Of a DNA stretch of 64,000 nt, positions 7,136 through 53,348 are shown piece after piece. The stretch lies in the IMG/VR virus record IMGVR_UViG_3300028874_000010, positions 48,369 to 112,368 of that record, one strand, 5' to 3'. Below the pieces are notes generated by a model. It was not told where the DNA came from. It saw only the letters and a list, made by a program, of their open reading frames with translations, and did no database searches. This DNA is from a virus. The first letter of the stretch is position 1; the number at the start of each line of letters is the position of its first letter. The position numbers and the translations under genes are program-made.

Positions 7136-9076
7136 TTACTGATTTTTACGGATACGTAGCCACCATTCAACAAGTAGACGGGTTTGGCGTTGCGTATAAC
7201 CCTTATCGGCCATCCGCTTGACAAATGATTCATGAGCTTCTTGATCCTTCTTTGATCCTTTAGAAGTGAAGCTGATCACTGGTAGAATTTCTTCTGTCCC
7301 AGCGAACATTTTCTTTTCAATAACTTGGCGCATCTTTTCAAAGTCGTTCCAGGCAGGCATATTGCCTTTATGGCCGGCTTTATGGCGAAGCACAAAGTTA
7401 ACAACTTCATTCCGGAAATCTTTCGGGTTCACAATACCTGCAGGCTTTTCAACTTTTTCTAGCTCAGCATTCAATGTCGAGCGATCAAATTGTTCGCCAG
7501 TATCAGCATCACGGAAATCTTCATCGCGGATCCAGAAATCTGCATATTGGACATATCGATCAAAAATGGTTTGGCCATAATCGCTGTATGAATCCATAAA
7601 GGCAATCCGGATTTCCTTTTCAACGAACTCAGCATACTTGTCGCCAAGTTGGTGCTTAATCAAATTGATCAGGTGTTCTTCACGATCTGATGGAAATTGT
7701 TCCTTGACGATTTCATTTTCCAAGACATACATCAAGTGAACCGGGTTAGCACCGATTTCTTCAGTATCAAAGTTAAATACCTTTGATAGGATCTTGAATG
7801 CAAATCGGGTCGAGATTCCGTCCATGCCTTCATTGACACCAGCAACATCCTTATATTCTTGGAGCGGCTTAGCACGTGGATCAACATCTTTGATATTTTC
7901 GCCATCATAGACGCGCATCTTGGAATATAGATTCGAATTGGCTGGTTCAACCAACCGGGACATGACTGCAAACTTGGCAAGCATTTCAAGAGTTTCTGGT
8001 GCAAATGGAGACTTGGCCAATTTACTTTTCGCCAACATCTTTTTATAGATGCCGACTTCTTCACTAGCACGTAGGCAATATGGAATCTTGACAATGTTAA
8101 CACGATCCAAGAACGCTTCATTGTTCTTGTTGTTACGGAAGGTCTTCCATTCACTTTCATTGGAGTGAGCAAGAACAATGCCATCGAAAGGAATACTGGA
8201 AATAGAATCTGTTCCGTTGTAATTCTTTTCTTGAGTTGCTGTCAAGAGTGGATGAAGCATCTTGATTGGGGCTTTGAACATTTCGACAAAGTCCAAGATC
8301 CCTTGATTAGCATTACATAGACCACCGGAGAAGCTATATGAATACGGGTTATCTGCAGCGTATTCTTCTAACATCCGGATATCAGTTTTACCAACCAGTG
8401 TCGTAATGTCTTGGTTGTTTTCATCACCAGGTTCTACTTTAGCAATCGCAATATTATTCAGAATGGAAGGATATTGCTTGATTACAGTCAATGACGAATG
8501 ATCACCTTTCAGGTCTTCAAGCTTTTGCGCCAGCCAAGGAGACATTTTGACTCGAAATGCACTTGCCGGAATATCATATTCTTCTTCAAGGGCAGCACTG
8601 TGAAGATCGACATCAAAGATGGAAAGAGGATTATCATGAATTGGAGAACCTTTGATGAAATAGATTGGTTCCTTTTCCATCAGTTCTTTCAACTTTTCGG
8701 CGATCGACGATTTACCACCACCGACGGGTCCGAGTAGATAAAGAATTTGTTTACTTTCTTCAAGGCCTTGAGCACTATGCCGGAAGTAAGAAACAATTGA
8801 TTCGATTGCATCTTCCATGCCAAAGAAATCTTTGAAGGCTGGATAGATTTTGATGATGCGATTTGAAAAAATGCGGCTGAGGCGAGCATCAGTTTTTGTA
8901 TCAACGAATTCCGGTTCGCCGATTGCCTTGAGCATACGCTCGGCTGGCGAAGCATAAACCGAAGGATCACTTTTGCAAAGATTCAAATATTCTTGAATCG
9001 ACATTTCTTCCTGGGTGTTACGCTTAGCGTAATCATTGGAAAATCTCGCCAGTACGCCCGAGTGTGCTTTGGACAT
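7136..9076 (-). CDS. yeaG: PrkA/YeaG AAA+ serine protein kinase
   Basis: LLGPVGGGKSS Walker A, EPGDENNQDI, FVEMFKAPIK, NNEAFLDR. Confidence 0.93.
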   Translation of the reverse strand: MSKAHSGVLARFSNDYAKRNTQEEMSIQEYLNLCKSDPSVYASPAERMLKAIGEPEFVDTKTDARLSRIFSNRIIKIYPAFKDFFGMEDAIESIVSYFRHSAQGLEESKQILYLLGPVGGGKSSIAEKLKELMEKEPIYFIKGSPIHDNPLSIFDVDLHSAALEEEYDIPASAFRVKMSPWLAQKLEDLKGDHSSLTVIKQYPSILNNIAIAKVEPGDENNQDITTLVGKTDIRMLEEYAADNPYSYSFSGGLCNANQGILDFVEMFKAPIKMLHPLLTATQEKNYNGTDSISSIPFDGIVLAHSNESEWKTFRNNKNNEAFLDRVNIVKIPYCLRASEEVGIYKKMLAKSKLAKSPFAPETLEMLAKFAVMSRLVEPANSNLYSKMRVYDGENIKDVDPRAKPLQEYKDVAGVNEGMDGISTRFAFKILSKVFNFDTEEIGANPVHLMYVLENEIVKEQFPSDREEHLINLIKHQLGDKYAEFVEKEIRIAFMDSYSDYGQTIFDRYVQYADFWIRDEDFRDADTGEQFDRSTLNAELEKVEKPAGIVNPKDFRNEVVNFVLRHKAGHKGNMPAWNDFEKMRQVIEKKMFAGTEEILPVISFTSKGSKKDQEAHESFVKRMADKGYTQRQTRLLVEWWLRIRKNQ

Positions 9077-9223
9077 TAACAACTCCTATTATTTTCAAAG
9101 TTTTGATTGAGAGAAACTACTGGTGAATCTACTACTATTATTTTGTGGTTCAGCATAAATACGATTTTTACACACAAGTTTTTTATTGTAAATCAAATTA
9201 GACTTGTTATTATGCTTTGCAGC

Positions 9224-13964: not shown

Positions 13965-14143
13965 ATTTGTTATTTATTAATCTAAAAACCTTTTATAAAA
14001 TGATTCGAATAATTTATCAAGGTCGAGTTCAACTCTTTGATATTCATCAGGTTTACCTTTCAAGGATTTCCGTCTAACCCGAATTGCTTCATATTCAACT
14101 AGCATCTTTTTATAGAATGTTTCATCGAAGAAATCTCTATTCT

Positions 14144-20843: not shown

Positions 20844-20853
20844 ATATTTCTAT

Positions 20854-21177
20854 TTATCCTATATACTTGCCATCAACAAAAATTCCATTTCCTCTATTGT
20901 AGAGTCGACTATTTCTTGCCAAGTTTCTTTTAAATTCGCCATCGAGATATAATGCTTTACTTTTGATTTCAATATCAGGAATTCGTTTACTTCCATACAC
21001 CAATCCAGATAATGAATAGTTTTCATTACCAATAAGTATAATAGAAGGACTCGCATTATCATTGATAGACTGTAGCTTAATTTTTTTAGCTACATTCCTA
21101 CGATTCATGATATACCAGACAACAATAAAAACACAAAGAAATCGTGAAAAACTTGGTGTTAAAAGCCAGTGTAACAT
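20854..21177 (-). CDS. hypothetical membrane-anchored protein
   Basis: N-terminal hydrophobic segment. Confidence 0.5.
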   Translation of the reverse strand: MLHWLLTPSFSRFLCVFIVVWYIMNRRNVAKKIKLQSINDNASPSIILIGNENYSLSGLVYGSKRIPDIEIKSKALYLDGEFKRNLARNSRLYNRGNGIFVDGKYIG

Positions 21178-23649: not shown

Positions 23650-23705
23650 ATTTTCTAAGGTAGATGATAACCCACCTTAGAATTTATTTATCTTATATTC
23701 CCGTA

Positions 23706-32046: not shown

Positions 32047-32124
32047 TGGTACCCAATCTCGGATTCGAACCGAGAACATTAAGCTTTTGAAGCTTACGCG
32101 TCTACCAGATTGCGCCAATTGGGC
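32047..32124 (-). tRNA. tRNA-Leu(CAA), short variable loop
   Basis: TAAGC-TTCAAAA-GCTTA, Leu-type D arm, A73, CCA. Confidence 0.88.
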
Positions 32125-32215
32125 AGTGTAATACGAAAAATTATTTCAATTCTTTAGAAGTCCCAACCAATAGAATTGGCTTATGTAATTATTCATGAAA
32201 TTAATTTGGCAGCGG

Positions 32216-32304
32216 AGGAAGATATGGGATTCGAACCCATGGGCCACCATAAGGCGACCTCCTGTTTAGCAAACAGGTATAATTAACCGCTCTACCAATC
32301 TTCC
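32216..32304 (-). tRNA. tRNA-Ser(GCT); CCA not fully encoded
   Basis: CCTGT-TTGCTAA-ACAGG, long variable arm. Confidence 0.9.
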
Positions 32305-32308
32305 TTTG

Positions 32309-32950
32309 TTACTTCTTTTTCATAGCTAGTAATACATATCTGGTTGAATCTTTAGCTGACTTTGCTGGAGTCTTCCAAATCTTTTCATCTGTAATATTCT
32401 TGCCATCATATTTCAATGGACTTCCGGAATCATCAAGGATTACATTTCCGTTGTCAATCACGTATACATCAAATTTATCACCAGAGAACCTCGCTAACTT
32501 TTCCCACAACTTCCTACCACCAATATATTGAGTGTGATCAGAAATCAAAACAAAACCATATTCGACTAAACTTAAATACAAATTGTAGCCGAAGCCATTG
32601 GCTTTTTCTTTACTGTATACTTCAACTACATCTACTTGAAGTACATTCTTAGAAGTTAAAATTTCTTCATCATAAGACAAATCCAGCTTACTTTTAAATT
32701 CTAATTTTCCAATTAGGTTAAGGCCGATTTTTTTATCTTCCTTACGAACAGATAATATGCCAATTACAGCAAAGCTTTTATCTTTTTTCAGGATAGACCA
32801 TACTTCTTCATCATTGACTTTGACCTTCCCGATACTATCAAAATCTCGTTTGATAGTATCTTCAGAATAAAATCGCATAGTACCAGACATTACAACAGGC
32901 ATTTCTTTGTCGATAAATTCTGGCATTTCAAATAGCTCTTCTATTTTCAT
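32309..32950 (-). CDS. putative virion-packaged GNAT-like protein
   Basis: MKIEELFEMP; paralog of 24472. Confidence 0.55.
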   Translation of the reverse strand: MKIEELFEMPEFIDKEMPVVMSGTMRFYSEDTIKRDFDSIGKVKVNDEEVWSILKKDKSFAVIGILSVRKEDKKIGLNLIGKLEFKSKLDLSYDEEILTSKNVLQVDVVEVYSKEKANGFGYNLYLSLVEYGFVLISDHTQYIGGRKLWEKLARFSGDKFDVYVIDNGNVILDDSGSPLKYDGKNITDEKIWKTPAKSAKDSTRYVLLAMKKK

Positions 32951-32954
32951 AATC

Positions 32955-33395
32955 TTATAGTTTCTTGGTTTCAGACAATAGAAGTTTATCAATATAAATC
33001 ACAACTTCTTGTTCATCACCATAACCTTCTTCTAATTCTTGATCGGCTAATTTATGTAATTCTTCAGGAGTGAATTCATTTACACCTTTAACAAATTCCA
33101 ACCAATCTTCTTTATCCATCCCAGTCACATGGACTAATAATGAATTTTTTTCAAGCCAATCAAGATTGTATTCGACCTTCACAATCTTAGCGTGTCGTTT
33201 CAATAATTTTTTGACATTAAGCTCTAATAAAATATTGCCGAAATCTTCTGTCTGATTTGCTTCTTTATCTGGAGTCGCACACAATGTACCGCGTTTAAAA
33301 GTCAATTCTCCTGTACTAGTTAATGTATGATATTGAGCATCACCCATGCGATGGTACAATTTAGTATACGGCGAAGCAAGTTCATATAATTTCAT
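32955..33395 (-). CDS. hypothetical protein
   Basis: MKLYEL start; LYH..EQEVVI is weakly reminiscent of ADP-ribosyltransferase folds (unverified). Confidence 0.55.
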   Translation of the reverse strand: MKLYELASPYTKLYHRMGDAQYHTLTSTGELTFKRGTLCATPDKEANQTEDFGNILLELNVKKLLKRHAKIVKVEYNLDWLEKNSLLVHVTGMDKEDWLEFVKGVNEFTPEELHKLADQELEEGYGDEQEVVIYIDKLLLSETKKL

Positions 33396-33429
33396 TTTAT
33401 ACATCTGATTTCATTTTATTGATATGAAC

Positions 33430-33524
33430 TGGCGGAGGACCGGGGTCTCGAACCCCGACGTCTTATTAGGGACACACTACGTTCGAAGTAGTTTCCGCTA
33501 GGCCAAAACTCGGATAAGTCCTCC
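33430..33524 (-). tRNA. tRNA-Ser(CGA), atypical D arm
   Basis: ACTAC-TTCGAAC-GTAGT, variable arm, G73-CCA. Confidence 0.82.
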
Positions 33525-33529
33525 AATCT

Positions 33530-33787
33530 TTAATCTTCAATGAAAATCGTAAGGTCATCACTGCTCCAATCGAAATTCAAAAGCTCGACTTTATACTTCT
33601 TAGCCAATGTCCTTGCATCGGCTTCAAATGCATCCATATCATGTTCAGCAGCTTGGTTAGTGAGATATAGCTTAATTTCATCGTCACTGGTTTCAGCTGT
33701 ATCGGCTGGGATATGATGCTTCTTTGCTAACTCTTCAAGAGCCACAACAAAACTCTTTTTACCTTCAAAAATCTCTGCTATTTTCAT
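33530..33787 (-). CDS. small acidic late protein
   Basis: MKIAEIFEG; AAGGA RBS; ATAAATA upstream. Confidence 0.6.
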   Translation of the reverse strand: MKIAEIFEGKKSFVVALEELAKKHHIPADTAETSDDEIKLYLTNQAAEHDMDAFEADARTLAKKYKVELLNFDWSSDDLTIFIED

Positions 33788-33847
33788 TACTATCCTTGAA
33801 ATAAATGGTTACTTTATTTATCTCCATTCTATCATAAAAACAAGGTA

Positions 33848-33924
33848 TGGTCCCCATCCTCAGCTTCGAACTGAGAACATTATCCTTTTAAGGGATACGC
33901 GTCTTCCAATTGCGCCAGATGGGG
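33848..33924 (-). tRNA. tRNA-Leu(TAA), short variable loop
   Basis: TATCC-CTTAAAA-GGATA, A73, CCA. Confidence 0.88.
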
Positions 33925-33925
33925 A

Positions 33926-34017
33926 TGGAGGAAAAGATGGGATTCGAACCCATGGACCCACTTTCGCGAGCCGTTAGTTTTCAAGACTAATGCAATAACC
34001 CGCTCTGCCACTCTTCC
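33926..34017 (-). tRNA. tRNA-Ser(TGA)
   Basis: TTAGT-CTTGAAA-ACTAA, long variable arm, CCA. Confidence 0.92.
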
Positions 34018-34142
34018 ATTTGTTATAATAAATACCGTCTATGACGGCACCTCACTTCTATTCACTGCAGCTATCACTTATGAAGGCCTTGGTGAAATGT
34101 ATAAAGAGTTTTTGAAGTAATATCAATACTTCATAAAACATT

Positions 34143-34228
34143 TGGTGCACGTTATAGGATTCGAACCTATTCAGGCACAAGGCCCACGCGTTTACAGCGC
34201 GCTTATCTCTCCAGAGGATTGAACGTAC
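34143..34228 (-). tRNA. tRNA-Tyr(GTA), atypical D arm
   Basis: GCGCG-CTGTAAA-CGCGT, variable arm, ACCA. Confidence 0.82.
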
Positions 34229-34238
34229 ATTATAAAAC

Positions 34239-34265
34239 TGGTGGACCACCTAGGTAACGATCCTT
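34239..34265 (-). pseudogene. tRNA 3' fragment (T arm + acceptor strand + CCA only)
   Basis: AGGATCGTTACCTAGGTGGTCCACCA with no 5' half. Confidence 0.55.
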
Positions 34266-34276
34266 CCATTTATTAC

Positions 34277-34366
34277 TGGTGAATGTCGATAGGAATTGAA
34301 CCTTCTTTGGCCTATTAAGGCATCAGCTTATCGGCTGACCGCGCTACCATTACGCACTACACATTC
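34277..34366 (-). tRNA. atypical tRNA (GAT in a 6-nt loop, long variable arm); possibly a pseudogene
   Basis: TCAGC-CGATAA-GCTGA; GCCT-TAAT-AGGC extra arm; ACCA. Confidence 0.55.
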
Positions 34367-34395
34367 ATTACTTCTTATCTACAACTTAGCAATTT

Positions 34396-34470
34396 TGGAG
34401 ACGCTACGGAGAATTGAACTCGCGATTTATTCCTTGAAAGGGAATTTTCCTACCTTTAGAAGATAGCGTC
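34396..34470 (-). tRNA. tRNA-Glu(TTC)
   Basis: ATTCC-CTTTCAA-GGAAT, CCA. Confidence 0.85.
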
Positions 34471-34482
34471 ATAATAAAACTT

Positions 34483-34556
34483 TGGCAGGCTTGCGGGGAA
34501 TCAAACCCCAGTCAGCGGTTTTGGAGACCGTTATGTTATCACTACACTACAAACCT
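34483..34556 (-). tRNA. tRNA-Trp(CCA)
   Basis: CTCCAAA loop, AGG 5' end, G73-CCA; D and T loops slightly degenerate. Confidence 0.82.
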
Positions 34557-34568
34557 ATTAAAACATTT

Positions 34569-34659
34569 TGGTGGGTTGGAAAGGAATTGAACCTATACAG
34601 ACTTATTGACATCGCGTCGCGTTTACAGCGCGGGGAGCTCACCAGTGCTCAGCCAACCC
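34569..34659 (-). tRNA. tRNA-Tyr(GTA)
   Basis: CGCG-CTGTAAA-CGCG, long variable region, ACCA. Confidence 0.82.
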
Positions 34660-34722
34660 ATTTACTAAGTGCATTCAGATAAAAACTCTGGCATGTATTC
34701 CTATTCCATCACATGTGCATTC

Positions 34723-34920
34723 GTAATTAATTTAAAGTTGAAGTCTACAAAATTTGTATGAGGATTCGAACCCATGTCTCCGACTTTCAAGATCGGCGCC
34801 TTACCACTTGGCCAACAAATTCAGAAATTTCAAATCTTGGCGCGTCAACACCAAGATCACTTATTCAGGTAGACTCAACTGTCGAAACAGTTGACGCTAT
34901 TTCAACTTTAAATTAACTAC
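34723..34920 (-). ncRNA. about 200-nt structured RNA containing an embedded tRNA-like domain (TGA anticodon)
   Basis: 20-bp terminal stem 34723-34742/34901-34920, internal stems, cloverleaf at 34750-34822 without CCA. Confidence 0.65.
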
Positions 34921-34923
34921 TCG

Positions 34924-35000
34924 TGGTGGCCATCCTCGGACTCGAACCGAGAACATTTACGCTCTAAACGTAACGCGTCTTCCAATTGCGCCAGACGGCC
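34924..35000 (-). tRNA. tRNA-Leu(TAG), short variable loop
   Basis: TTACG-TTTAGAG-CGTAA, A73, CCA. Confidence 0.88.
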
Positions 35001-35025
35001 AAAATATTACATTTACCGGATTCAG

Positions 35026-35060
35026 AAAACAAAAAAGGCGAATCGTTTAGGATTCGCCTT
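35026..35060 (-). terminator. intrinsic terminator (attenuator) upstream of the tRNA array
   Basis: AAGGCGAATC-CTAAAC-GATTCGCCTT-TTTTGTTTT. Confidence 0.85.
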
Positions 35061-35086
35061 GATGTTAGGATCTGAAGAGTATGTAT

Positions 35087-35185
35087 TTACATACTGTGTC
35101 CAGCTCTTACATTCAAGGCGTGTGCCCACTCATACGATAAACTCTCGTATGAATAAGACAACAGGCTGAGTGATGAACTGAACAT
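35087..35185 (-). CDS. putative attenuator leader peptide MFSSSLSLLSYSYESLSYEWAHALNVRAGHSM
   Basis: AAGGA RBS; 18 consecutive Ser/Leu/Tyr/Glu/Trp codons; its 3' part pairs with the terminator 5' arm. Confidence 0.75.
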   Translation of the reverse strand: MFSSSLSLLSYSYESLSYEWAHALNVRAGHSM

Positions 35186-35220
35186 TTTAAATCCTTAATT
35201 AGTGTTTTGTGCTACAAAAG

Positions 35221-35228
35221 TATTTATA
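35221..35228 (-). promoter_or_regulatory. T4-type late promoter TATAAATA upstream of the leader
   Basis: Exact consensus; also at 14930, 27716, 47395, 51903, 53197, 54391, 55271. Confidence 0.65.
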
Positions 35229-35310
35229 GCAGGTTTTGAATCAATATGAAGATTATATGCTGTTTTTTGATATTTTAATACTACCAAATTGTAACAACAT
35301 ATTACGAGGC

Positions 35311-35991
35311 TTATTCTAGGTATAACCAGTTTGCTACTTCGATGCTGAGTTCCATCTCTTTGACTGCAGCCGGAATATTCTTAGCTACATTGATAAGTTT
35401 TTGTAGGCTGTCTTGTTTAGTTCCAACAAATTCTGACGAAGTGAACCAATATTCTTCGGAAGCAAAGTCATCATTGGCAATCAATGCGATTGCTTCTTCA
35501 CGATTTTTAGCTTTTGGTTTCTTCATAAAGCCAAAGAACCCTTTTTGTGGTGTCATATAATAAGCGATAAGCCTATCTTGACACGTTTTTTTAGAAACTT
35601 CAATTTGTTCTAGGGCCAAAATAGATTTACTAATAACAAGTTCTTTTGGAATTAATACAAAGCCTAGTTTAGTGGAGGACATATATTTTTCTACGTTATT
35701 TTTAGGTGGGTAATCATCGAAATGATCTATATTTAATGTGAAGATGTCGGGGCACGATGGATCATATGCGGTGACCCAAACACCAAATAACTTAATATCT
35801 TCTACAACATATTCTAACAACTTTGGGCTTGGCAAAGGTAAGAGTGAGCCCATCCATTCTTCAAGGTCCTTAATTCGACTAATGAAAAATTCTCTAGTCG
35901 CAAGATCATCTTCGCAATCTATAATGATAGGATTATTAATCCCATGAGGCGCCCCTCTTGTTTTGCTAGGCCTAACTACAAATTTTGTCAT
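35311..35991 (-). CDS. hypothetical protein
   Basis: ORF, 226 aa. Confidence 0.55.
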   Translation of the reverse strand: MTKFVVRPSKTRGAPHGINNPIIIDCEDDLATREFFISRIKDLEEWMGSLLPLPSPKLLEYVVEDIKLFGVWVTAYDPSCPDIFTLNIDHFDDYPPKNNVEKYMSSTKLGFVLIPKELVISKSILALEQIEVSKKTCQDRLIAYYMTPQKGFFGFMKKPKAKNREEAIALIANDDFASEEYWFTSSEFVGTKQDSLQKLINVAKNIPAAVKEMELSIEVANWLYLE

Positions 35992-47357: not shown

Positions 47358-47627
47358 AAAATAATTACTGGTGAAATGGCACCAGTACCAAAAGTATTTA
47401 TAAGCGTTTTAGATCATTAATACAAATCCCAAACGCTGTACCTATGAACCAATTGTATAACACTTCATCATCGCCATACAACTTTTTTTTCTTGAAATTT
47501 ATCACAAGTTCTTCTTTCAAGTTTGGATCCGATTTAAGATTCATAACTATTGGTTTATCCCAAGACAACATTTGGATTGTCTTGGACCATAGCGAATCAA
47601 TCAAATCTTGATAAGTACCAACACACA

Positions 47628-48363: not shown

Positions 48364-48381
48364 TAATTACTTCAATATCGA

Positions 48382-51796: not shown

Positions 51797-51871
51797 TGGC
51801 GCGGGGATGGGAATTCGAATCCCATACTCCTGGGTGGAAGCCAGACATGTAACCGTCAACACTTTCCCCGC
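51797..51871 (-). tRNA. tRNA-Gly(TCC), G73
   Basis: GCGGGGA acceptor, CTGG-CTTCCAC-CCAG, CCA. Confidence 0.82.
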
Positions 51872-51946
51872 AATAATTTGATACTGTAAAATATTACATT
51901 TCTATTTATATCACTTTACAGTATCATGTATAGCTTTTTGCCAAAC

Positions 51947-53270: not shown

Positions 53271-53348
53271 TGGTAGTCTGTATCGGATTCGAACCGATGA
53301 CCTACTGTTTTGAAGACAGATGCTCTAACCAGACTAAGCTAACAGACC
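53271..53348 (-). tRNA. tRNA with TCA anticodon (opal/UGA suppressor)
   Basis: CTGT-CTTCAAA-ACAG; standard 7/5 class I body, A73, CCA. Confidence 0.82.

Follow-up and report, generated by a model that had tools for sequence, protein, structure and literature searches.

A candidate leader-peptide attenuator ahead of a phage tRNA gene block

Why phages carry transfer RNA (tRNA) genes, and how these genes are controlled, is an old open question. The usual answers are that phage tRNAs compensate for codon usage, or that they replace tRNAs lost to host shut-off or to defence nucleases; both assume plain expression of the genes. Here, we focus on a block of tRNA genes within 64,000 nucleotides (nt) of viral DNA, positions 48,369 to 112,368 of the IMG/VR virus record IMGVR_UViG_3300028874_000010, and on a short open reading frame (ORF) that lies ahead of this block on the minus strand. 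The whole stretch, termed the window, is the terminal 64 kb of a 112,368-bp virus contig that has a G+C content of 37% and nearly all of its genes on the minus strand. Coordinates are window positions unless another contig is named. The ORF is built from codons for the same amino acids that the tRNA genes behind it serve, and the locus raises the question of whether the reading of one controls the making of the other. We consider it likely that the element is a ribosome-mediated (leader-peptide) transcription attenuator that gates the tRNA block, and the phage would then probably make the tRNAs of the block only when ribosomes read the leader codons slowly.

The leader ORF and the tRNA block behind it

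The element begins with the promoter motif TATAAATA (35221-35228), followed by the Shine-Dalgarno sequence AAGGA (35192-35196), which is located 6 nt before the start codon of a 32-codon ORF (35087-35185; ATG at 35185, TAA at 35089-35087; all features of the locus are on the minus strand). Codons 3-20 of this leader (35126-35179) form a putative regulatory run. They spell SSSLSLLSYSYESLSYEW and comprise 8 Ser, 4 Leu, 3 Tyr, 2 Glu and 1 Trp codons, represented by 13 different triplets, with no other amino acid among them. Downstream of the ORF is a terminator (35060-35035) with a 10-bp stem that includes five GC pairs, a 6-nt loop and the tract TTTTTTGTTTT, at a predicted energy of -14.7 kcal/mol. 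The motif at 35221-35228, the ribosome-binding site, the ORF, the run composition and the strong terminator had all been noted in an initial annotation of this DNA, and all are present.

The first tRNA gene, tRNA-Leu(TAG) (34924-35000), lies 26 nt past the terminator. It opens a proximal block (33848-35000) consisting of Leu(TAG), a tRNA-like element, Tyr (34569-34659), Trp (34483-34556), Glu(TTC) (34396-34470), a further tRNA-like element, a second Tyr (34143-34228), Ser(TGA) (33926-34017) and Leu(TAA) (33848-33924). The distal part (32047-33787) contains tRNA-Ser(CGA) (33430-33524), tRNA-Ser(GCT) (32214-32304) and tRNA-Leu(CAA) (32047-32124), together with three small protein genes (33787-33530, 33404-32955 and 32950-32309, the last counted from its ATG). 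The tRNA calls combine ARAGORN, Rfam and alignment with a relative: tRNA-Glu(TTC) is recognized by Rfam at 47.9 bits and was not called by the default ARAGORN run, while tRNA-Ser(CGA), which the finders miss or mis-parse, aligns from end to end with the tRNA-Ser(CGA) of the relative. The ten tRNAs that had been listed earlier, including Ser(CGA), are thus correct, and the two tRNA-like elements are additions to that list. Together, the tRNA genes serve exactly the five amino acids of the leader run, and the proximal block by itself serves all five. No promoter-like motif was found inside the proximal block or between the terminator and the first tRNA gene.

No second run like the 18 residues of Ser, Leu, Tyr, Glu and Trp occurs in the contig; in six frames over 112,368 bp, the next longest has 8 residues. 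Of the codons in the genes of the phage, 27% specify one of the five, as do 30% of those in the six-frame translation, and the probability of such a run in an ORF of the leader's length is about 1e-9. The amino-acid set was not chosen post hoc, because it is defined by the downstream tRNA genes. The fold of the region is also much more stable than those of its dinucleotide shuffles (z = -6.75). A palindrome, TCATACGA/TCGTATGA, contributes to the sequence of the run, and synonymous codon choice in the leader is indistinguishable from the normal usage of the phage.

The motif TATAAATA, which is identical to the late-promoter consensus of phage T4, has 14 copies on the coding strand of the contig versus one on the opposite strand. 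The copies among those listed precede gene starts or tRNAs, for example tRNA-Gly at 51871, which begins 31 nt downstream of its motif. This strand bias and this positioning argue that TATAAATA is a genuine promoter motif of the phage, and it heads every leader found in relatives as well. The ribosome-binding site is likewise of a form (AAAGGA/AAGGA) that stands before ordinary genes of this phage. Each of the stand-alone tRNA genes for Gly(TCC), Ser(TGA), Cys and Ser(GGA) has, 6-35 nt upstream, TATAAATA or a variant with one mismatch (51903-51910, 20851-20858, 23685-23692 and 13971-13978, respectively, all on the minus strand) and no leader. Two further TATAAATA promoters, at C1:44989 (3.4 kb ahead of the window) and at 47395-47402, carry the first transcribed bases of the leader (CTTTTGTAGCA / CTTTTGGTAC).

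Leaders and tRNA blocks in related phages

Relatives were found by searching IMG/VR with the PrkA protein of the window, a PrkA/YeaG-type serine kinase (7136-9082, minus strand; phrog_22605, 723 bits); their tRNA genes were located with the Rfam tRNA model and the blocks compared. The PrkA of the nearest relative, G001, is 81% identical to that of the window, compared with 65% for G002/G004 and 64% for G003/G005.

In G001 the homologous block contains Leu(TAG), Leu(GAG), Trp, Glu, Glu, Tyr, Tyr, Tyr, Glu, Ser(GGA), Ser(TGA), Cys, Ser(CGA), Ser(GCT) and Leu(CAA); compared with the window, it adds tRNA-Cys, Ser(GGA) and Leu(GAG) and is without Leu(TAA). Ahead of it are TATAAATA, a 33-codon ORF (L085:1395-1496) and a nearly identical terminator, with 20 nt of the segment 4 region, TTCGCCTTTTTTGTTTTCTG, unchanged from the window (the four RNA segments are described below). 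In the G001 leader, 19 consecutive residues are drawn from Ser, Leu, Tyr, Glu, Trp and Cys, with two TGC codons, two TCC codons and no TTA, whereas the window leader has no Cys codon, no TCC and one TTA, and its block includes Leu(TAA). Between the two phages, the leader codons for Cys, TCC and TTA therefore track the presence of tRNA-Cys, Ser(GGA) and Leu(TAA).

A second block in G001 carries tRNAs for Gln, Met, Ala, Arg, Phe, His, Asn, Val, Pro, Ile, Lys, Thr and Asp. The first 39 residues of the leader in front of it (L082:1599-1751, 50 codons) are made up of all 13 of these amino acids and no others, so that Ser, Leu, Tyr, Glu, Trp, Cys and Gly are absent. On another contig, a similar block follows a leader (L112:2459-2599) that is homologous to this one but has its residues in a scrambled order; the longest run of this leader against its own array is 6, the array being incomplete since the contig ends and no Ala, Phe or Asn tRNA was found on it. 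In G002/G004, an 18-codon leader with a 15-residue run of Gly, Cys, Tyr, Lys, Leu and Ser stands ahead of a block of just those tRNAs, and a 35-codon leader with a 22-residue run of Thr, Phe, Ala, Pro, Glu, His and Trp stands ahead of a block that matches it. The tRNA-Gly(TCC) of G001 has the same direct-promoter arrangement as the stand-alone tRNAs of the window, and Gly is the one amino acid outside both G001 leaders.

There are thus five matched pairs of leader and array in three lineages. When every leader is compared with every array, the longest runs against the leader's own array are 18, 19, 38, 15 and 22 and those against other arrays are 2-11, the exception being the window leader, which also reaches 18 against the G001 set, in which its own set is included. 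The initial annotation had suggested that leader codons might co-vary with array content in related phages, and leader content does follow array content in all five pairs. As a negative control, at least about 130 chance matches to a 16-nt piece of the leader in public contigs gave runs of at most 6. They came from a search of viral and metagenome contigs for the pattern GAGTGGGCNCANGCCTTG, in which G001 was the sole true relative among the matches listed. A 20-mer from the D-arm of tRNA-Leu, used as a probe for relatives, matched two unrelated contigs.

The layout is shared by six of six leaders: a promoter, an ORF, a run that ends 5-10 nt before the 5' arm of a potential antiterminator, and, 25-45 nt ahead of the first tRNA, a terminator. 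In five of the six the stop codon falls inside the antiterminator loop, and in G002 it falls on the antiterminator 5' arm. Within the run, all five substitutions between the window and G001 remain in the amino-acid set of the array, as do 20 of the 23 substitutions between the two leaders for 13 amino acids, tails included. Exchanges within runs are chemically radical (Ser/Tyr, Tyr/Glu and Ser/Leu). Radical substitutions that stay inside the array set fit selection on the codon content of the leader and not on the peptide.

RNA folds, the proposed switch and its rivals

The transcript of the window leader can be divided into four segments. Segment 1 (35156-35184), which spans the start codon to codon 10, is the 5' strand of a predicted 1:2 anti-antiterminator and pairs with 35127-35097 in the minimum free energy (MFE) fold of the full leader. 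Segment 2 (35097-35127) contains the antiterminator 5' arm (35120-35109) and can pair with either segment 1 or segment 3. Segment 3 (35051-35065) holds the antiterminator 3' arm (35065-35055) and, overlapping it, the terminator 5' arm (35060-35051). Segment 4 (35026-35044) consists of the terminator 3' arm (35044-35035) and the T-run (35034-35026). In isolation, the predicted energies are -35.2 kcal/mol for 1:2, -26.2 for 2:3 and -14.7 for 3:4. The matched run stops 5 nt short of the antiterminator 5' arm; beyond it the ORF no longer matches the array and runs through segment 2 and the antiterminator loop.

The full-length leader is predicted to fold with the terminator formed (P 0.97) together with a long, irregular 1:2 hairpin. 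When the terminator 3' arm is omitted, 35120-35109 pairs with 35065-35055, the alternative that had been proposed for the terminator 5' arm and the late leader, and this pairing shares 35060-35055 with the terminator. A hairpin at 35154-35128 (10-bp stem; -16.0 kcal/mol including its extension) also exists where a pause hairpin had been suggested, and is better read as the tip of 1:2. A smaller hairpin at the antiterminator tip (35078-35095, -5.8 kcal/mol) holds the TAA stop codon in its loop. By column, the terminator and antiterminator arms are conserved between the window and G001, and the tip hairpin, the stop hairpin and the pairing of the Shine-Dalgarno bases are not; G001 has a different hairpin in place of the tip hairpin. 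Across relatives, 2:3 complementarity is kept with three different arm sequences (the window and G001, G002, and G004). The Shine-Dalgarno bases pair with 35073-35067 in the full-length fold; this pairing was weighed as a translational switch and ruled out, as it is not conserved in G001.

To place the ribosome, a 30-nt footprint was masked at each codon on a transcript ending just before segment 4. The antiterminator forms with the aminoacyl (A) site on codons 1-18 and is lost with it on codons 19-29, so that the predicted sensing window nearly coincides with the matched run of codons 3-20. The initial annotation had cautioned that a ribosome stalled late in the run might cover the antiterminator, and with the A site on codon 19 or later it does cover the antiterminator arm. 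Contigs from four peat DNA runs, which gave no starts or ends, show one variant in 2.2 kb, which lies at 35061 (G>T on the plus strand, C to A on the minus strand); it would break the antiterminator pair G35114-C35061 and add an A-U pair to the terminator stem but, as one observation from low-depth contigs, carries no weight by itself.

The reading as a trp-type attenuator that the initial annotation put forward is supported by the sequence features of this class, which are all present: a promoter with a ribosome-binding site and ORF, a codon run, a terminator, mutually exclusive 2:3 and 3:4 pairings, and a 1:2 pairing, with leader content changing alongside array content in relatives. The switch would operate as follows. 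Transcription would start from TATAAATA, and a ribosome would load at AAGGA and read the leader. Fast decoding of the Ser, Leu, Tyr, Glu and Trp codons would carry the ribosome on into the antiterminator-encoding stretch of the ORF and to the stop codon within the antiterminator loop; segments 3 and 4 would then pair, and RNA polymerase would halt at 35035-35026, 26 nt before the first tRNA gene. If the ribosome stalls in codons 3 to about 18 for want of charged tRNA, it would cover segment 1 and leave segment 2 free to pair with segment 3 before segment 4 is made, so that no terminator forms and transcription enters the tRNA genes. The net effect would be negative feedback, with the tRNA set made when that set is limiting. 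The parts, geometry, statistics and co-variation of this scheme are read directly from DNA; from them we infer leader translation, stalling and regulated read-through.

Several observations weigh against this reading or narrow it. At the level of codons, the match between leader and block does not exceed chance: 13 distinct codons have a P of 0.11, and coverage of nine of nine anticodons a P of 0.18. The claim that almost every leader codon has its isoacceptor downstream is thus true by count and not beyond chance (P 0.11-0.18), and the block offers no strict Watson-Crick or standard-wobble reader for CTC and TCT. We therefore restrict the claim: the match is one of amino acids and, across genomes, of a few specific codons. 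The idea that a stall at any codon of the run would free the antiterminator holds, in the masked folds, for codons up to 18; the sole Trp codon and the last Glu codon are too near segment 2 to induce read-through. With the ribosome at codons 30 to the stop, both antiterminator arms are outside its 30-nt footprint, so that blocking of 2:3 there would rest on sterics, which lie beyond the fold model. Of the two alternative states foreseen for this RNA, both appear in the folds; at equilibrium, however, the ribosome-masked complete transcript shows no switch, as the terminator wins for stalls at codons 10-20. The switch would work only as a kinetic, co-transcriptional decision, as in trp. On a transcript that ends before segment 4 and carries no ribosome, 2:3 is preferred thermodynamically (P 0.84), so that the basal state would depend on 1:2 forming first. 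The scheme also assumes coupled transcription and translation, and hence a phage that does not form a nucleus.

Further points of this kind concern the setting. A variant motif, GATAAATA, at 33815-33822 is a candidate internal promoter ahead of the ORF at 33787-33530 and may free the distal tRNAs from leader control, in keeping with an earlier caution that they might have promoters of their own; the same variant occurs just upstream of the stand-alone tRNA-Ser (20844) and tRNA-Cys (23649). Nor is the layout shared by all phages compared: no leader was found ahead of the tRNA arrays of the more distant relatives G003/G005, nor were leader ORFs found ahead of the tRNAs of the cultured phages XacN1 and RsoM2USA in the stretches examined. 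The sequencing runs that contain DNA of the contig are peat metagenome DNA, with no RNA run among them.

Among the rival explanations, the one that survives best, although we regard it as unlikely, accepts that the leader is translated and senses decoding speed and gives it another output: Rho-dependent polarity, an effect on how the tRNA precursor is processed or how stable it is, or a constant, partial termination by which the tRNA level is set. In its favour are the thermodynamic advantage of the terminator on the complete transcript and the poor masking when the ribosome is at the stop codon, and the three protein genes inside the block would be affected too. The mutually exclusive 2:3 and 3:4 pairings, kept with three different sequences, are however the signature of an antitermination switch, and the position of the run with respect to segment 2 is in line with such a switch.

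Less probable is a non-coding, structured small RNA that extends from TATAAATA to the terminator, with the ORF incidental. The T4 tRNA region, with its stable RNAs C and D, offers a comparison, and the fold is very stable (MFE of the region -62.8 kcal/mol; z = -6.75 against dinucleotide shuffles) and sequesters the Shine-Dalgarno bases in the pairing with 35073-35067 noted above. An incidental frame would nevertheless not be expected to hold an 18-codon run of such low probability that co-varies with the tRNA block. The Shine-Dalgarno pairing, the tip hairpin and the stop hairpin are unconserved by column in G001, whereas the arms of the terminator and antiterminator are conserved, and no Rfam family matches.

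A shade less probable again is a small functional peptide rich in Ser, Leu and Tyr, with a terminator that ends its own or an upstream transcript and tRNAs that are expressed independently. The ORF is well equipped with a promoter and a ribosome-binding site, termination would yield a stable RNA of about 190 nt, and other tRNA genes of the phage are driven directly by TATAAATA or GATAAATA. This explanation leaves it unexplained that the amino-acid set equals the tRNA set in five pairs of leader and array and that the second partner of the terminator 5' arm always lies inside the ORF; it offers no reason for radical substitutions within the set or for scrambled order between homologous leaders, and the 26 nt between the terminator and the first tRNA contain no promoter-like motif. 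Chance, in the form of a low-complexity ORF that happens to precede a tRNA block, can be put aside on the statistics: Ser and Leu have six codons each and are common in random frames, and the palindrome shapes part of the run, but the next longest run in 112 kb and six frames is 8, the chance matches to the leader piece stop at 6, and four further pairs match independently.

We therefore return to ribosome-mediated attenuation of the tRNA block, and to what it would respond to. The two G001 leaders together cover 19 amino acids, which looks more like control of tRNA supply in general; this points to block-wise feedback on tRNA supply, whatever the cause of the shortfall, rather than specifically to counter-defence against anticodon nucleases. 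A broader possibility, which we put forward tentatively and hold to be somewhat less probable than not, is that this lineage of large phages splits nearly the whole genetic code among a few 'roster' leaders, each gating its own tRNA block as a self-correcting supply; in G001, one leader has 13 amino acids and one has 6, and Gly is served by a directly promoted tRNA.

If attenuation is correct, the phage gauges decoding speed for its tRNA set and makes the set on demand, and the logic of trp and his attenuation extends from amino-acid synthesis to tRNA supply. If the roster reading is also correct, tRNA genes would be a new class of target for ribosome-mediated attenuation with a built-in counter to tRNA depletion, and the blocks would offer a block-wise answer to codon-usage mismatch, host shut-off or tRNA-cleaving defences. 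Some of the unannotated 'intergenic' ORFs of 18-50 codons in giant phages may then be selected for codon content and not for a peptide. The cassette is about 200 nt long and directly testable, and it provides a search signature: behind a promoter, a short ORF that has the same composition as the tRNA set downstream of it, then a terminator that can also pair within the ORF.

Genomic setting and comparison with known systems

The PrkA of the window is 58-60% identical to that of 600-kb uncultured phages and of Ralstonia phage RsoM2USA, and on the strength of this likeness the contig is probably a piece of a large phage genome. PrkA is common to 79 IMG/VR contigs at 55-81% identity, many of them longer than 200 kb, and is a useful marker for relatives. 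At the level of DNA, the contig has no close relative among 50,697 phage records, to which it is similar at the tRNA level only. The protein encoded upstream of the leader (35311-35991) has only near-identical copies among 5.8 billion proteins and no relative in phage records or IMG/VR; a protein search found no relatives of the 227-aa protein embedded in the tRNA block, and no gene of the block or its surroundings had an informative match in Pfam or PHROGs.

Within the block, the first tRNA-like element (34749-34822, minus strand), between tRNA-Leu(TAG) and tRNA-Tyr, is a 74-nt cloverleaf that scores 47.9 bits with the Rfam tRNA model; it has a TGA (Ser-type) anticodon but class-I size, and is without an encoded CCA. 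The second (34277-34366, minus strand) is 90 nt long, with a long variable arm, a CCA and an aberrant anticodon loop, and is called 'Ile|Tyr' by ARAGORN and given only 22.7 bits by Rfam, to tRNA-Sec. It may be a decayed or unusual Tyr-type tRNA, since the homologous block of G001 has three Tyr genes compared with two here. The three tRNA-Leu genes are all 77-78 nt long and are without the long variable arm usual in bacterial tRNA-Leu; those of G001 include both short (77-79 nt) and normal (84-85 nt) forms. Elsewhere in the window is a 78-nt tRNA with the anticodon TCA, of the opal-suppressor type (53271-53348, minus strand), and G001 has two TCA-anticodon tRNAs (L082 8036-8111 and 9316-9392). 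Long ORFs are open under code 11, and wholesale opal recoding seems unlikely. The tRNA groups of Xanthomonas phage XacN1 (L122 14500-14620, 23060-23108 and 26380-26416) have a CACTAAATA-like motif 20-35 nt upstream and no leader ORF, in what looks like a different, direct way of driving phage tRNAs.

The closest mechanistic parallels are the enterobacterial leaders trpL, hisL, leuL, pheL, thrL (Thr and Ile) and ilvL (Leu, Val and Ile). They share with the window leader a short ORF with regulatory codons, the 1:2, 2:3 and 3:4 pairings, a terminator right before the regulated genes and an antiterminator freed by a stalled ribosome, and the multivalent ones sense several amino acids. They regulate biosynthetic enzymes, whereas the targets here would be tRNA genes, so that the class of molecule sensed is also the product. 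Enterobacterial leaders repeat one to three amino acids; the run here mixes five, and those of relatives 6 or 13. The setting also differs, being a phage with a promoter resembling that of T4 late genes, and at E values up to 1 the region 35000-35230 has no match to the Rfam leader families (Trp_leader, His_leader, Leu_leader, Thr_leader and others). The pheM leader of Escherichia coli pheST brings attenuation to an aminoacyl-tRNA synthetase and answers the supply of charged tRNA. It is therefore a case of attenuation of the translation apparatus, but it differs in its synthetase target, its single amino acid and its cellular gene.

Other systems share part of this logic. T-box riboswitches also convert tRNA status into a choice between terminator and antiterminator upstream of translation-related genes. 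They are untranslated, and uncharged tRNA binds directly to their specifier codon and T-box sequence, whereas the leader here is an ORF with a ribosome-binding site; the Rfam T-box covariance model has no match at E up to 1 in 35000-35230. In ermCL, ermBL and the vmlR leader, stalling in a short upstream ORF likewise remodels downstream RNA. Such drug-sensing leaders stall through an antibiotic and the nascent peptide, while stalling here would come from a lack of charged tRNA at many codons, with an unconserved peptide. The tRNA cluster of T4, in a genome with TATAAATA promoters, consists of tRNAs that are interleaved with small ORFs and stable RNAs and are processed from longer transcripts; we know of no leader peptide or attenuator described for it.

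In full-text searches of about 8.4 million papers and preprints, we found no description of tRNA genes controlled by a leader peptide. The nearest published case is the stress-induced tRNA operon of Anabaena PCC 7120, a cryptic long tRNA array (the trn operon) that is induced under translational stress (PMC8421152), a paper in which the words leader, attenuat- and terminator are absent. It is an accessory set of tRNAs that is kept low until translation is impaired, as the block described here would be. It is found on a cellular megaplasmid, not in a phage, and according to the abstract of PMC10272220 its control is exerted by a transcriptional repressor, the protein TrcR. The mechanism proposed for the window is itself that of the trp, his, leu, thr and ilv leaders; the novelty lies in the target, tRNA genes, in the mixed 'roster' of amino acids that makes up the leader, and in its occurrence in a phage.

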